From the IMG/VR virus record IMGVR_UViG_2529292985_000033: DNA of 12,710 nt. One strand, given 5' to 3'. The first letter of the stretch is position 1. The number at the start of each line of letters is the position of its first letter. Shown here piece by piece: positions 982 through 12,710 of the stretch. The position numbers and the translations under genes were made by a program. The notes beneath the pieces are model-generated. The model ran no database searches, was not told where the DNA came from, and saw nothing but the letters and a program-made list of their open reading frames with translations. Source of the DNA: a virus (taxonomy: Duplodnaviria; Heunggongvirae; Uroviricota; Caudoviricetes).

Positions 982-1485
982 TTACTGATAGTGTTTTATG
1001 TTCAGATAATGCCCGATGACCTTGTCATGCAGCTCCACCGATTTTGAGAACGACAGTGACTTCCGTCCCAGCCTTGCCAGATGTTGTCTCAGATTCAGAT
1101 TATGTCGCTCAATGCGCTGAGTGTAACGCTTGCTGATAACGTGCAGCTTTCCCTTCAGGCGTGATTCATACAGCGGCCAGCCATCCGTCATCCATACCAC
1201 GACCTCAAAGGCCGACAGCAGGCTCAGAAGACGCTCCAGTGTGGCCAGAGTGCGTTCACCGAAGACGTGCGCCACAACCGTCCTCCGTATCCTGTCATAC
1301 GCGTAAAACAGCCAGCGCTGACGTGATTTAGCACCGACGTAGCCCCACTGTTCGTCCATTTCAGCGCAGACAATCACATCACTGCCCGGTTGTATGCGCG
1401 AGGTTACCGACTGCGGCCTGAGTTTTTTAAGTGACGGAAAACCGTGTTGAGGCCAACGCCCATAATGCGTGCACTGGCGCGACAT
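982..1485 (-). CDS. insB: IS1 transposase InsB-frame ORF (iso-IS1 variant)
   Basis: 167-aa ORF with recognisable IS1 InsB sequence (…[21 protein letters not shown]…[52 protein letters not shown]…). Confidence 0.85.
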
Positions 1486-2953: not shown

Positions 2954-4810
2954 TTATGATGATGCCGGTGCATTTATCTCCAGCACCAGACTTTCTATCT
3001 CAACGCCATACGCTGCATTTTTGGTAATATCCGTCAGCGTCAGCGCATTCAGCCCCAGTGTCAGACTGTCTTTTATGACCTGGAATGCCGGGCCAGCCAC
3101 ACCATTCAGTTTCGGAGTAACCGTGGCACTGCCGGCGGTGAACACCAGCTCCAGCGTCTGCCAGTCGTTACTGTAATTCCCGAACTCGCCCAACTTTGTG
3201 TTTCCGGCTTTCTTGTGATGCATCAGATTCAGTTTGCCGTCTGTGGTCTGGGTGAAGAACGACATCAGGAACGGGTTACCAGTCCCGGTCATCGCCACGA
3301 CGTCAGGTAACGCTACATCGGTATACAGATAAATTCCCAGACCGAACTGGTTGTTGGTCAGTGCGCCTGACAGTCGAAACTTACAGCTCAGTCTGCCACC
3401 CCGTGTCAGCAGGGAGACTGCGTCATCCACCGGATGCATCAGGGACCAGGTTTTATTGCTCTGCTTGGTAACCTTAAACACACCATCTTCCAGCGCAACA
3501 CTGCCGCCGGTGATGGTCCAGCCCTGCGCAGCAGCCTCTCCGGCTGTCGGCAGCAGGGAGACTGTACGAACGGATGTGTCACCATCAGACGGCCCCGATG
3601 GCGTGTCGCCGCCGGGCGAGGGTTTAATCTCCGGTGCGGTACCGCTGATGAAGGCGCTGGTTCGACCAACTGCGTTCAGAATAGCGGTTGCCAGGCGATC
3701 CGAAATAATGCCCCTGCGCGCCCATGAACTGAAATGTGTCGGACGATTTGACGATACCCAATTACCATTACTACGGGATTGCGCGCCGTAATAACCTGCA
3801 TCAGCAATATCCGGGTCTTCTGCCGGTAAGTTGGTGGGCGTGTTGTTACCGTTACCGTCGGTCATGAACGGCACAAAGAAAACGTTGTCGCTCTCCCTGT
3901 TTTTGTACGCGCCGTAGACGGAGTCATACTGTGTGCCGTATGTGTTTTTCCAGTAATACGTCGTGTCGCCACAAATCCACGGTACAACTGCAGCACTGCC
4001 GCCATGGCACTGCGCGTTAAATCCGGAAAGGTCAGTACGGAACTGCTTCAGCATGGCCGTGAACAGGTCCGGTTGCTGTGCGTAGGTGGCAGCGCTCATG
4101 TCAAATTCGCCCTGCATCCAGCACACCGCCAGCAACACATTTTTCGGGTTCTTCTGTAATGCCGCTTTGGTGCGTGCGATCAGGTCCTGATATAACGGTT
4201 TACCCACACCCCAGCGTGCCGAATCCTGGCTGGCCCCCGTGTCCGCACTGAATGTCCCCTCCGCGCCCTGGGTGAATGCCGAACCACCACGACAGCATGG
4301 TACCAGCAGGATCCCCGCGTTATTCGGGATATACGGAAGCAGTTTTTTGGCAATATGTAAGCCCTGGCCGACACAGCCGTACTGCCCTTTGCTCAGGTCT
4401 GCCTTCGGATGATTCAGTGCGCTCATATCCTGAACATCATGCAGGCAGTGGTCTGCCGGAATGATGTCGTTAAATGCGCATGCTTTACCACCGGGAGTCA
4501 CTGTGTTGCGACGGGCCAGTTGCTTAATACGTGGGTGGGGCGCATCGTAAGAATCCGGAAGCGGAAGCCCTTCACCGTAAGCCATGGCATTGGATTGCCC
4601 GGCCAGTACGATGACGTAGTACCACTCCGGCTCAGTTGCACCACTGACGACCACATCACCTTCTGCTGCAATCGCCTGCATCAGGGTATAAGGGGTTATG
4701 GCCACCGGACTACCAAACGGCTGCCAGCCCTCTTTCAGTTTATGTGTCAGCTTTTCCGCAAGATCTGACGGCGACGCCGCCCTGACAACATCATAGTGTT
4801 TAAATGCCAT
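2954..4810 (-). CDS. nanS-p: Prophage-type sialate O-acetylesterase (NanS-p-like; N-terminal DUF1737-like region plus SASA/SGNH-type esterase domain)
   Basis: Contains the GQSN block (…VLAGQSNAMAYGEG…) typical of sialate O-acetylesterases, at a length (~620 aa) and position matching the nanS-p genes of Stx-type phages. Start placed at MAFKHYDVV (4810), which has a GGTGGAAAG SD-like sequence; the track start at 4825 has none. Confidence 0.75.
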   Translation of the reverse strand: MAFKHYDVVRAASPSDLAEKLTHKLKEGWQPFGSPVAITPYTLMQAIAAEGDVVVSGATEPEWYYVIVLAGQSNAMAYGEGLPLPDSYDAPHPRIKQLARRNTVTPGGKACAFNDIIPADHCLHDVQDMSALNHPKADLSKGQYGCVGQGLHIAKKLLPYIPNNAGILLVPCCRGGSAFTQGAEGTFSADTGASQDSARWGVGKPLYQDLIARTKAALQKNPKNVLLAVCWMQGEFDMSAATYAQQPDLFTAMLKQFRTDLSGFNAQCHGGSAAVVPWICGDTTYYWKNTYGTQYDSVYGAYKNRESDNVFFVPFMTDGNGNNTPTNLPAEDPDIADAGYYGAQSRSNGNWVSSNRPTHFSSWARRGIISDRLATAILNAVGRTSAFISGTAPEIKPSPGGDTPSGPSDGDTSVRTVSLLPTAGEAAAQGWTITGGSVALEDGVFKVTKQSNKTWSLMHPVDDAVSLLTRGGRLSCKFRLSGALTNNQFGLGIYLYTDVALPDVVAMTGTGNPFLMSFFTQTTDGKLNLMHHKKAGNTKLGEFGNYSNDWQTLELVFTAGSATVTPKLNGVAGPAFQVIKDSLTLGLNALTLTDITKNAAYGVEIESLVLEINAPASS

Positions 4811-5069
4811 GGTTCTTTCCACCATCTGAAAAATGATTCTTTAAAATACCTGACATGTAATACAGAAAAAAACAAAACCATACCTTAAATAAAAACCTCA
4901 TCATCAAGCAGATATGCATGGATAAACTACAAGACGAGATATAAACCACCATGCATTTAAATAAACAATAAACAACATCAGAAAAATAATTCTGCTCTAT
5001 GGTTTACAATCAAAAATATCATTTATACTTTTCAGAACATCACCAGCAAGACATAAACAAGGAAACTAA

Positions 5070-5405
5070 ATGAAGTGGATTGTGATTGATACAGTTATCC
5101 AGCCATCATGCGGAATATCTTTTTCAGTCATATGGAGTAAAATAAAATTAATAATCTGGTATCAATCGGATGCTTTCTTACCTCCTGAAAGTATATTTAC
5201 ACTGACTCACACAGGCATCATGCTCAATAACAAAGTGCTACCTGTAACCATTTACAACGTAGTGCCATTCAATAAAACATTCTGGAATTTAATCAAAAAC
5301 AGCCAGGAATGCCCTACAAATACAGATAACGTATTGAATGAATGCTTTAATAACCGTTGCACTCTGCAAATATGTCCTTATGGACTAAAACAACAAAGTC
5401 CATAA
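5070..5405 (+). CDS. Hypothetical 111-aa protein, AT-rich candidate moron ORF, opposite in orientation to all phage genes
   Basis: ATG at 5070 is preceded by AAGGA (5059-5063) with 6-nt spacing. It is the only ORF of 60 aa or more with an ATG start in the 4826-5830 segment. I recognise no similarity; the I/N/K-rich composition could be an artefact of AT-rich DNA. Confidence 0.35.
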
Positions 5406-5425
5406 GGAGTTTACTCACATCTGAC

Positions 5426-5461
5426 AAAATCAATATAAACAGCCCCTCCGGAGAGGGGCTG
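5426..5461 (-). terminator. Intrinsic terminator-like hairpin (9-bp stem CAGCCCCTC/GAGGGGCTG, 4-nt loop) followed on the minus strand by a U-rich tract
   Basis: Perfect inverted repeat at 5440-5448 / 5453-5461. The plus strand has an A-rich tract at 5426-5439, so the minus-strand RNA reads hairpin then UUUAUAUUGAUUUU. Confidence 0.5.
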
Positions 5462-5830
5462 GAGAGTGGCGCTATGTGCCATTGCATGGTGCCGGGTGCC
5501 TCCCGGTAAATTCAGCCTGTCTACTGAATTTGCATGTTCTCTGGATCATACACTTTGCCAGATGCCCCGCCGCTGAGGGGGATTCACCATGCGATGTAAT
5601 TTTTAACAAATTCTCCGGCAGCCAGACAATCATCAAGCTGTGGAATTGTGAGGTATTTAAAAATTTCAACGGGTAACTGATACCCTGCTAATCGCCTGAT
5701 GCTTTCTTTTTCAGCAACGGGAAAGCAACAACCACCACACCCGCCACCAAAACATCATCAGACAGCACCGACATTATCCGGCTGCTGAAGTCCACCATCA
5801 CCACCAGAAACAACAGGAGTGCAACCACAG

Positions 5831-5971: not shown

Positions 5972-6047
5972 TGGTGGCCCTTGCTGGATTTGAACCAGCG
6001 ACCTGGCGATTATGAGTCGCTCGCTCTCACCACTGAGCTAAAGGGCC
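5972..6047 (-). tRNA. ileZ: tRNA-Ile2 (anticodon CAU, lysidine type; automatic tools may call it tRNA-Met), 76 nt
   Basis: Minus strand GGCCCTTTAGCTCAGTGGTGAGAGCGAGCGACTCATAATCGCCAGGTCGCTGGTTCAAATCCAGCAAGGGCCACCA closely resembles E. coli ileX-type tRNA, with anticodon loop CTCATAA and CCA end. Confidence 0.85.
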
Positions 6048-6087: not shown

Positions 6088-7146
6088 TCATCCGTTCTGG
6101 CTGACTAAATCCTGTACTTCCCGAACCGTCTGCTCAAAACGTCCGGTCTCCAGCTCAACGCCAATCGCACGACGCCCGAGCGCCAGTGCCGCTTTTACCG
6201 TTGAACCTGAGTCCATAAAAAAATCTGCAACCAGGTCACCCGGACGACTGCTTGCGCTGATTATCTGCTGCAGCATTTCTGCCGGTTTTTCGCACGGATG
6301 TTTCCCGGGATAGAACTGCACCGGTTTATGTGTCCACACATCCGTGTACGGCACCTGCGCCGTCACACCAAAATACCGCCGCAGATGCTTATATTCACTC
6401 TGCAGCTCCACATACTGCCGATTCAGTGACGTATACGTATCCACCAGCTGGTGGTGGGGCTTTTCCAGTTCACCGCGCTGATGTTTCTCTTCTGCCACCC
6501 GGGCAAACAGCGACTGTAATTTCAGATAATCGCTTTCGTTCGGTAGCTGCCACTGACTGGCACTGAACCAGTGCGACACCATGTTTTTCTTTCCTGTGGC
6601 ATCTGCAATCTGTTTTGCCGTTATCCCCAGGGCCGCGCGCGCATCACGAAAGTAAGAAATCAGCGGGGCCATCACATGCTGTTTCAGTGCACTGCCCTTC
6701 GCCGCATACCCGGCATCTTTCGGACGATACGGCCCCTGATAATGTTCCGCGAACAGAATGCGCTCTGTGGCGGGGAAATACGCCCGCAGGCTTTCCTTGT
6801 TGCATCCGTTCCAGCGTCCGGACGGCTTCGCCCAGATAATATGGTTCAGCACACTGAAGCGTTCACGCATCATGATTTCGATATCAGATGCCAGGCGATG
6901 ACCACAGAACAGGTAAAGACTTCCGGCAGGTTTCAGCACCCGCCAGAACTGCGCCAGACACTGGTCCAGCCACTTCAGGTAATCATCGTCGCCCTTCCAC
7001 TGGTTATCCCAGCCCTCAGGCTTCACTTTAAAGTACGGCGGGTCCGTGACTATCAGGTCAACAGAATTTTCGGGTAACGACCAGATAAATTCCAGGCAGT
7101 CGGCGTTGATTAACTCACAACTGGATATTTTTACAGTATTAAGCAT
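6088..7146 (-). CDS. DNA methyltransferase, beta-class amino-MTase (N6-adenine or N4-cytosine), no adjacent restriction gene
   Basis: DPPY catalytic motif near the N-terminus (…DLIVTDPPYF…) and an AdoMet-binding motif near the C-terminus (…DLVADFFMDSGST…). This circular-permutation order is typical of beta-class MTases. Position between Q and the tRNA array matches Stx-type phages. Confidence 0.85.
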   Translation of the reverse strand: MLNTVKISSCELINADCLEFIWSLPENSVDLIVTDPPYFKVKPEGWDNQWKGDDDYLKWLDQCLAQFWRVLKPAGSLYLFCGHRLASDIEIMMRERFSVLNHIIWAKPSGRWNGCNKESLRAYFPATERILFAEHYQGPYRPKDAGYAAKGSALKQHVMAPLISYFRDARAALGITAKQIADATGKKNMVSHWFSASQWQLPNESDYLKLQSLFARVAEEKHQRGELEKPHHQLVDTYTSLNRQYVELQSEYKHLRRYFGVTAQVPYTDVWTHKPVQFYPGKHPCEKPAEMLQQIISASSRPGDLVADFFMDSGSTVKAALALGRRAIGVELETGRFEQTVREVQDLVSQNG

Positions 7147-7240
7147 GGATCATTAAGCCTGTCTCTGATAGGCTCATTCTGCTTTTGCGCAAAGCAGTGG
7201 GCCTGAGGTTTGCTTGTGAACCCAACGCATGAGCAGATGG

Positions 7241-7267
7241 CTGGTGGGTGCCCCTAACACCCACCAG
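7241..7267. other. Perfect 10-bp inverted repeat CTGGTGGGTG-N7-CACCCACCAG (stable hairpin, no U-tract)
   Basis: Read directly from the sequence; lies in the 150-bp leader between the small HTH ORF and the MTase start. Confidence 0.6.
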
Positions 7268-7283
7268 CCGCCCATTTACCACA

Positions 7284-7310
7284 AATAAAAAAGCCTTCAC
7301 TGCGGAAGGC
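7284..7310 (-). terminator. Intrinsic terminator-like hairpin (GCCTTC-N6-GAAGGC) followed on the minus strand by UUUUUUAUUU
   Basis: Stem at 7293-7298 / 7305-7310 with a plus-strand A-run at 7284-7292. It overlaps the stop codon of the 7297-7494 ORF. Confidence 0.55.
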
Positions 7311-7494
7311 GTCTGTAACAACCGAACTGATAGTCTGCCAGACCCGCCATAACCAGCTGGGTCAGTATTAACTGGCAGCGTTCGCGTGAAAGGTAAGTAT
7401 TCTGCGCAATCTCCCCGACTGTCGCCGGGTCGTTAACGCTTAATTCATTAAACACCACTCTGGCGGTTTCTGTCATATCCTGCTGTTTTAGCAT
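7297..7494 (-). CDS. Hypothetical 65-aa protein with HTH-like segment (…ATVGEIAQNTYLSRERCQLILTQLV…), first ORF of the late transcript
   Basis: Start chosen at MLKQQDM (ATG 7492-7494), preceded by AAGGGAAAAAGAC. The longer track ORF (to 7581) would run through the tR'-like terminator. The motif assignment is by eye only. Confidence 0.4.
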   Translation of the reverse strand: MLKQQDMTETARVVFNELSVNDPATVGEIAQNTYLSRERCQLILTQLVMAGLADYQFGCYRRLPQ

Positions 7495-10786: not shown

Positions 10787-10942
10787 TTACTCCTCAGGTT
10801 CGTAAGCTGTGAAGACAGCGACCTCCGTCTGGCCGGTTCGGATTCGTACCTCGCAGAGGTCTTTCCTCGTTACCAGTGCCGTCACAATGACGGTTAAACA
10901 GATGACGATCAGGGCGATTAGCATCGCCTTTTGCTGCTTCAT
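10787..10942 (-). CDS. hokD: HokD (RelF) type I toxin, 51 aa
   Basis: MKQQKAMLIALIVICLTVIVTALVTRKDLCEVRIRTGQTEVAVFTAYEPEE matches HokD as I recall it. The track ORF extends 19 codons upstream in frame to 10999. Confidence 0.9.
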   Translation of the reverse strand: MKQQKAMLIALIVICLTVIVTALVTRKDLCEVRIRTGQTEVAVFTAYEPEE

Positions 10943-11118
10943 AGCCTGCTTCTCCTTGCCTTTCGGCACGTAAGAGGCTAACCTACGTGTGTAGAGCATA
11001 GATATGGCCTCAGATTAATGTTAAGCGTCTTGCCGGACGCGTAATGTTAACTGGGGCTTTTCTCTATCTGCCTTTTGGTGTTCATGCCTGAGACAGATAG
11101 CCTCAAGCACCCGCTGCA

Positions 11119-11467: not shown

Positions 11468-11481
11468 CTTTGGATTTGCCC

Positions 11482-12387
11482 CTATATTTCCAGACATCTG
11501 TTATCACTTAACCCATTACAAGCCCGCTGCCGCAGATATTCCCGTGGCGAGCGATAACCCAGCGCACTATGCGGATGCCATTCGTTATAATGCTCGAACG
11601 CCTCTGCAAGGTTCTTTGCTGCCGTTAACCCGTCTGGTTTGGGCATGATACTGATGTAGTCACGCTTTATCGTTTTCACGAAGCTCTCTGCTATTCCGTT
11701 ACTCTCCGGACTCCGCACCGCCGTGTTCTTCGGTTCAAGTCCCAACATCCGGGCGAACTGGCGTGTTTCATTAGCCCGGTAGCATGAACCATTATCCGTC
11801 AGCCACTCCACTGGAGACGACGGAAGATCGTTGCCGAAGCGGCGTTCCACCGCTCCCAGCATGACGTCCTGTACTGTTTCACTGTTGAAGCCGCCGGTAG
11901 TCACCGCCCAGTGCAGTGCCTCACGATCACAGCAGTCCAGCGCGAACGTGACACGCAGTCTCTCTCCGTTATCACAGCAGAACTCGAACCCGTCAGAGCA
12001 CCATCGCTGATTGCTTTCTTTCACGGCCACTCTGCCTGTATGTGCCCGTTTCGATGGTGGTACAGCAGGTTTTCGCTCAAGCAACAGCGCATTCTGGCGC
12101 ATGATCCGGTAAACACGTTTGGCATTGATCGCAGGCATACCATCAAGTTCTGCCTGTCTGCGAAGCAGCGCCCATACCCGACGATAACCATACGTGGGCA
12201 GCTCTCCGATAACATGGTGTATACGGAGAAGCACATCCGTATCATCAGTGTGACGACTGCGGCGGCCATCCATCCAGTCATCGGTTCGTCTGAGAATGAC
12301 GTGCAACTGCGCACGCGACACCCGGAGACAACGGCTGACTAAGCTTACTCCCCATCCCCGGGCAATAAGGGCGCGTGCGCTATCCAC
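11482..12387 (-). CDS. insD: IS2 transposase OrfB (InsD), copy 2 (E to G substitution relative to copy 1)
   Basis: 301-aa ORF identical to copy 1 except PKPDELT to PKPDGLT. Confidence 0.9.
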
Positions 12388-12710
12388 TTTTTTGCCCGTC
12401 CATATTCAACGGCTTCTTTGAGGAGTTCATTTTCCATCGTTTTCTTGCCGAGCAGGCGCTGGAGTTCTTTAATCTGCTTCATGGCGGCAGCAAGTTCAGA
12501 GGCAGGAACAACCTGTTCTCCGGCGGCCACAGCAGTAAGACTTCCTTCCTGGTATTGCTTACGCCAGAGAAATAACTGGCTGGCTGCTACACCATGTTGC
12601 CGGGCAACGAGGGAGACCGTCATCCCCGGTTCAAAGCTCTGCTGAACAATTGCGATCTTTTCCTGTGTGGTACGCCGTCTGCGTTTCTCCGGCCCTAAGA
12701 CATCAATCAT
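12345..12710 (-). CDS. insC: IS2 OrfA (InsC), copy 2; start codon is the last codon of the window
   Basis: 121-aa ORF identical to copy 1 InsC. Confidence 0.9.

Follow-up and report, generated by a model that had tools for sequence, protein, structure and literature searches.

The window, by which we mean the whole stretch of 12,710 nucleotides analysed here, contains the remnant of a lambdoid prophage between insertion sequences and, within this remnant, an AT-rich segment with a reading frame on the plus strand. From the high-numbered end downwards, its genes and features are as follows.

11471–12710: IS2 copy 2, in the same orientation as copy 1
10787–11112, minus strand: hok/sok type I toxin-antitoxin; sok RNA (RF01794, 117 bits) at 10937–11112, with a hokD-like reading frame just downstream of sok
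After hokD/sok in window order, minus strand: DUF968
After DUF968 in window order, minus strand: RusA
8542–7721, minus strand: Q-type antiterminator, 273 aa
7146–6088, minus strand: DNA methyltransferase
6047–5972, minus strand: tRNA(CAT), called Met by ARAGORN
5964–5888, minus strand: tRNA-Arg
5622–5431, minus strand: STnc100 small RNA (Rfam RF02076), full-length, 130.6 bits against a gathering threshold of 47
5440–5461, minus strand: GC-rich hairpin serving the convergent STnc100 small RNA as intrinsic terminator
5070–5405, plus strand: reading frame of 111 codons with an ATG start and a TAA stop, very probably the iraL coding sequence, encoding the RssB anti-adaptor IraL
4826–5434: AT-rich iraL module of 609 nt, about 32% GC, bounded by the esterase start codon and the STnc100 terminator
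4825–2954, minus strand: SASA/DUF1737 esterase, 623 aa
1568–2898: IS2 copy 1, directly after the esterase gene
982–1485, minus strand: IS1 transposase fragment
Within 1–1485: ExaC-like aldehyde dehydrogenase gene

The GC content is 0.30 to 0.35 over positions 4801–5400, against about 0.55 on either flank. From the esterase start (4825) up to the tRNAs (5888), the frame at 5070–5405 is the only one longer than 50 aa that begins with ATG. The remaining frames in this interval are 50 to 66 aa long and begin with TTG or GTG, with the single exception of a 50-aa frame with an ATG start on the minus strand (4800–4952). The 5070–5405 frame is on the plus strand, whereas the neighbouring phage genes (esterase, methyltransferase, Q, RusA, DUF968 and hokD) are all on the minus strand. 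Its translation contains five cysteines, C14, C81, C92, C97 and C102. In these respects the earlier note, made from the letters of the window, was accurate: it had described an AT-rich frame with five Cys codons, the only sizeable ATG-initiated one in the segment and opposite in direction to the phage genes. It had also warned that the frame might be spurious, that is, a chance product of AT-rich intergenic DNA from which no protein is made. The low GC content of the segment would agree with such an origin, as would a local Pfam scan that returned no family. However, when the 609-nt AT-rich segment was shuffled 2000 times with its dinucleotide composition preserved, the longest ATG frame had a mean length of 49 aa, and a length of 111 aa was attained in only 5 of the 2000 shuffles. 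The observed length therefore exceeds that which the composition gives by chance, contrary to the worry expressed in the note.

The protein, which had not been recognised from the sequence, is identical over 111 of 111 residues to the characterised RssB anti-adaptor IraL of the uropathogenic E. coli strain CFT073 (C_RS06710, WP_000871291.1). The two coding sequences agree at 335 of 336 nucleotides, the single difference being synonymous, and over a 655-nt module the window and the CFT073 iraL region are 98% identical. In CFT073, IraL has been described as a paralogue of IraM, 58.9% identical to it and encoded on the potB island (Hryckowian et al. 2014, mBio 5:e01043-14, PMC4045071). On that island in NC_004431.1, C_RS06710 lies between the Q/tRNA region and a holin gene, on the opposite strand. 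IraL as defined in that paper shares 95% or more of its complete coding region with CFT073 iraL, and at least 96% of the promoter and regulatory region from −100 to the transcription start site (TSS); the window gene lies above both thresholds, with two substitutions (5009 and 5036) in the latter region. The protein also scored 162 bits over residues 1–110 of 111 with the NCBIfam model NF007393 (IraM subfamily, cutoff 121), and phmmer aligned its residues 1–78 with 8twd_A, the IraM crystallised with RssB (E = 9e-32). The local hmmscan of Pfam-A gave no match for IraL or for K-12 IraM even at E ≤ 10, in conflict with precomputed Pfam tables, in which PF11183 (PmrD) is assigned to IraL and to all its relatives. 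None of the analyses made gave evidence against the identification. We conclude, with a probability of about 0.95, that the frame at 5070–5405 is the gene iraL, carried by a prophage, and that its product belongs to the IraM/IraL/RssC family, whose members are RssB anti-adaptors. Both the gene and the way it acts have been known since 2014 (PMC4045071).

A megablast search with positions 4826–5480 matched 2221 complete E. coli genomes, and the feature annotated under each match was 'anti-adapter protein IraM'. RefSeq and NCBIfam indeed give this name to every copy of iraL. Taken literally, the label would make the product IraM proper, i.e. a PhoQ/PhoP-induced anti-adaptor of Mg2+ starvation that binds both domains of RssB. 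This is the role of K-12 IraM (YcgW/ElbA; PDB 8twd), the RssB anti-adaptor of Mg2+ starvation, with which IraL shares family, fold, the target RssB, the contacts to the RssB N-terminal domain and four C-terminal cysteines. A second feature that might speak for IraM proper is a PhoP-box-like direct repeat, TGTTTATTGTTTATTTA, on the minus strand at 4958–4974, which lies 63–79 nt upstream of the TSS and has one mismatch to KGTTTA-N5-KGTTTA. However, the search that found it gave one match where 2.45 were expected, and at least one match arose in 179 of 200 shuffles, so that the repeat is not above chance level. Moreover, the identity of the window gene to K-12 iraM (b1160) is only 62% at the amino acid and 69% at the nucleotide level, against a threshold of at least 95% for IraM sensu stricto, and IraL has four additional C-terminal residues. 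No homology was seen when the upstream regions of iraL and K-12 iraM were aligned, which agrees with the view that the two genes are regulated differently (PMC4045071). The surroundings differ as well: K-12 iraM is found at the flank of e14 next to ycgX, the window gene in a lambdoid late region. [quoted passage not shown] The gene thus has each testable property of IraL and lacks the sequence identity, upstream region and chromosomal context of IraM sensu stricto, despite the RefSeq label, and we regard IraM proper as a very improbable assignment. The name 'IraM' on copies of iraL masks a paralogue with distinct regulation and a distinct mode of RssB binding.

The comparison with iraM also bears on whether the frame is translated at all. 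By the method of Nei and Gojobori, iraL and K-12 iraM differ with pS 0.68 and pN 0.22 (dN/dS 0.14), and their differences fall 27, 17 and 55 times at the first, second and third codon positions, so that the third position accounts for 55 of 99. Among 86 copies of iraL, 12 nucleotide alleles were distinguished. Their polymorphic sites were 8 synonymous and 2 non-synonymous, and neither indels nor stop codons were present, the frame being whole in 86 of 86. As this set consists mostly of the best 80 of 253 viral-contig matches, chosen by protein identity, its polymorphism count is biased toward identical proteins. In a less biased sample, 30 genomes spread among the 1446 that bear the coding sequence, 29 had a full-length, intact annotated gene and one a partial match. 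Of the 5426 complete E. coli genomes, 1446 contained the coding sequence, 1440 of them at near full length, and 4 sequenced phages and 253 IMG/VR contigs had it as well; the protein of the window is the commonest variant (85 of 87 copies). The reading frame is under purifying selection. In addition, the identical protein has been purified and binds RssB (PMC4045071). The conservation pattern together with this published biochemistry refutes a chance origin of the frame, which retains practically no probability. One further sequence, L013 (32% identical by tblastn), was tried as a family member in the protein alignments and dropped, having 4 stop codons across the matched stretch.

The signals for expression of the gene lie upstream of it, on the plus strand.

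5003–5008: TTTACA, candidate −35 hexamer, 15-nt spacer to TATACT, assignment uncertain
5024–5029: TATACT, −10 hexamer, ending 7 nt before the homologous TSS
5037: TSS by homology to that of CFT073 iraL, giving a 5′ UTR of 33 nt
5059–5063: AAGGA, Shine-Dalgarno sequence, 6-nt spacer to the ATG

[quoted passage not shown] Since the window reads ACATCACCAGCAAGACATAAACAAGGAAACTA from position 5037 and so matches the RACE end, the homologous TSS is at 5037 and the leader is 33 nt long. The earlier note had pointed to the AAGGA sequence 6 nt before the start codon, which is where we found it, and had proposed TTTACA and TATACT as a −35/−10 pair. The second half of this proposal stands, in view of the distance of TATACT from the homologous TSS; TTTACA as −35 is doubtful, because the spacer would be only 15 nt. 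For the same reason the pair was absent from the list given by a consensus promoter scan, which admitted spacers of 16–18 nt. An alternative −35 element, GGTTTA at 5001–5006, would have a spacer of 17 nt. Among 86 loci, 14 leader alleles were distinguished. All 14 agree in TATACT, in the sequence around the TSS and in AAGGA, and TTTATA or TTTAAT is found at the −35 position in some of the loci. A point mutation in the −35 element has been mentioned for the second iraL copy of JJ1886 (PMC4045071). Relative to the promoter and leader of CFT073, the window carries substitutions at 5009, 5036, 5051 and 5067. Three of these four are shared by the commonest leader allele (50 of 86 loci), which differs from the window at 5051 only, and the leader of one locus, L091, is identical to that of the window. 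Judged from its sequence, the promoter is of the sigma-70 type and is iraL's own.

At the other end of the gene, a terminator scan placed the hairpin at 5440–5461, 35 nt past the iraL stop codon, on the minus strand; its stem has 9 pairs, of which 7 are GC, and TTTATATT follows it. It is kept in nearly all of the 86 loci compared. The scan gave no canonical plus-strand terminator 3′ of iraL. The hairpin may also end iraL transcripts, though the plus strand has no T-run after it. Because the small RNA is convergent and its terminator lies so close behind the iraL stop, any read-through from iraL would be antisense to STnc100.

A model of the protein was built with AF2 on an alignment of 13 sequences. 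Its mean pLDDT was 63, which is moderate; the core had values of about 58–81 per 10-residue block, and residues 79–111 were below 50. The model contains seven strands and a helix at 69–76, with the strands and helix of IraM in its core. In a Foldseek search of the PDB, 8twd_A came first (E = 2.6e-7, TM 0.68), followed by the PmrD structures 4hn7 and 2jso. The structure prediction that had been proposed as a check on the frame therefore gave a core of moderate confidence whose best match is an IraM. By this model and the match to 8twd_A, the core of IraL is a small PmrD-like β-barrel with antiparallel strands, a β-hairpin and one helix, and a resemblance to PmrD is also reported in the paper on the IraM structure (PMC10844676). 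The same paper names 14 residues of IraM, in three clusters, as contacts to RssB (PMC10844676). Ten of the 14 are identical in IraL. [quoted passage not shown] The intact set of N-terminal-domain contacts agrees with the two-hybrid assay, in which IraL bound the N-terminal domain alone.

From these data and the published work a chain of events can be proposed. First, iraL would be transcribed from its own sigma-70-type promoter (TATACT, TSS at 5037), on the opposite strand and independently of the Q-dependent late operon. For the window this step is drawn from conservation of the promoter; in CFT073 the promoter was located by 5′ RACE and by complementation with a −100 to +33 fragment (PMC4045071). 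Secondly, the 111-aa protein folds as a PmrD-like β-barrel (residues 1–78) with a Cys-rich tail, as its homology to PDB 8twd and the AF2 model show. Thirdly, IraL would bind the response-regulator-like adaptor RssB, mainly via the N-terminal receiver domain of the latter; for the identical protein, binding to RssB was demonstrated by co-purification and by two-hybrid assay (PMC4045071). RssB would then no longer hand sigma-S (RpoS) to ClpXP, and because RpoS could not be delivered to this protease, its half-life and level would go up in exponential growth. This last step was demonstrated with deletion mutants: loss of iraL in CFT073 shortened the log-phase half-life of RpoS from about 5 min to about 2.5 min, and its loss in Shigella sonnei lowered RpoS. 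In K-12, a fragment that starts at −100 and includes the whole gene raised log-phase RpoS (PMC4045071). In the source of the window, iraL is probably expressed and active.

It had been supposed in the earlier note that the frame is an independently expressed moron with its own promoter and Shine-Dalgarno sequence in the cargo slot of the phage. The first part has been borne out, the frame being iraL, whose TSS has been mapped in CFT073. The gene has the marks of a phage moron: it sits in a discrete insert of 32% GC against about 55% around it, and it has a promoter with a mapped TSS, with no dedicated plus-strand terminator found. The second part holds for the region, which is the cargo region of a lambdoid prophage, but not for the exact position. 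In VT1-Sakai, an Stx1 phage, an STnc100-like segment (75% identical) follows stx1B, and an unrelated GC-rich spacer of 232 nt separates this segment from the esterase gene. Because of this order, iraL, though within the cargo region, comes one sRNA gene after the position of stx. In the window, the 609-nt iraL module takes the place of that 232-nt spacer between the STnc100-type small RNA and the esterase. Throughout lambdoid prophages iraL constantly has the Q/tRNA region on one side and the esterase/lysis genes on the other, and its orientation is the same despite different Q alleles; the arrangement also recurs in the four sequenced phages and the 253 IMG/VR contigs.

Like the known morons of lambdoid late regions (stx, bor, lom), iraL is an AT-rich insert downstream of Q which has its own promoter, is expressed in the lysogen and alters the physiology of the host; unlike them, it runs against the late operon. 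Within its own family, it is closest to CFT073 iraL, which occupies the same place, flanked by the Q/tRNA region and the lysis cassette, in the same opposite orientation. The two loci differ in the esterase gene, which is intact in the window and reduced to a DUF1737 stub in CFT073, in the four promoter and leader substitutions given above, and in the cutting of the window prophage by IS2. RssC of Salmonella belongs with IraL and IraM in the family described in the literature, the paper giving 49.3% identity between rssC and iraL (PMC4045071); it is restricted to Salmonella. PmrD (PF11183) is more distant. It is a connector protein that protects phospho-PmrA, and it resembles IraL in being a small β-barrel protein that binds the receiver domain of a response regulator. 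In contrast, its identity to IraL is about 15%, its target is PmrA and not RssB, and the tail with four cysteines is absent from it. Taken together, iraL is a moron of lysogenic conversion, by which a prophage rewires the general stress response of its host: through IraL it raises RpoS in active growth, with altered stress resistance as the outcome in uropathogenic E. coli and Shigella.

Only a remnant of the prophage is present in the window: IS2 copy 1 cuts it right after the esterase gene, and the second IS2 lies on the other side. The two copies are 99.84% identical over 1240 nt, in direct orientation, and bracket an 8.6-kb prophage piece that includes iraL; this layout resembles a composite transposon. 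An exact-match scan of genome contigs with the IS2/esterase junction (2880–2925) gave no match; from the load of IS elements, one could guess at Shigella as the source. The aldehyde dehydrogenase gene matches positions 2–313 of a 503-position model, and as the match ends where the IS1 fragment begins, it appears to be a chromosomal gene cut short by IS1. It might be supposed, then, that the gene, though iraL by origin, is silent or of no use in its host, a passenger in a decaying, IS-ridden piece of prophage. The two IS2 copies would agree with this, as would the four substitutions relative to the promoter and leader of CFT073 and the fact that the window as a whole was found in 0 of 5426 complete E. 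coli genomes. However, the reading frame is uninterrupted and gives the commonest variant of the protein, and no change is seen in TATACT, around the TSS or in the Shine-Dalgarno sequence. The leader is a single position (5051) away from the commonest allele, and an identical leader occurs at L091. Furthermore, iraL was functional in S. sonnei (PMC4045071), which is itself an IS-rich lineage. We therefore consider a silent passenger unlikely and retain the reading of the gene as a working iraL.

Some minor observations were made on the neighbouring RNA genes. For the tRNA at 5972–6047, RefSeq annotates the homologues in other genomes as tRNA-Ile. A tRNA-Ile here would presumably be of the lysidine-modified ileZ type, which is typical of the tRNA clusters of Stx phages. 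The stretch of the STnc100 small RNA appears in other genomes as partial 'hypothetical protein' pseudogenes of RefSeq. In two intact prophages with an identical esterase (L094 and L095, about 6727–7391), the STnc100 segment is present in two copies, against one in the window, and positions 5437–5634 of the window accordingly align to two places in each.

A last point concerns the C-terminal tail of IraL. Four of its five cysteines, C81, C92, C97 and C102, lie there in the pattern C-P-x9-C-x4-C-x4-C-P-Y/H-G (residues 81–107; window 5310–5390). These four are invariant in 13 of 13 aligned family members, down to 54% identity; the fifth, C14, which lies in the crystallised core, is replaced by Ser in 6 of them. 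The C-terminal tail was removed for the sole crystal structure, in the report of which it is termed less conserved and flexible (PMC10844676). Because residues 79–111 have pLDDT below 50, the AF2 model is uninformative on whether the tail cysteines cluster. Zinc and anti-adaptor cysteines go unmentioned in the structure and mechanism papers on IraM and IraL that were searched, and the papers found when the literature was searched for IraM together with zinc and cysteine were all unrelated. The tail may thus be a minor lead that is perhaps unaddressed in print. That its four cysteines form a zinc knuckle, or else a disulfide module sensitive to redox state, in IraL and IraM is a rather doubtful proposal; if it were true, the stability or the activity of the anti-adaptor might depend on such a module, which could constitute an unrecognised metal or redox input to the control of RpoS.
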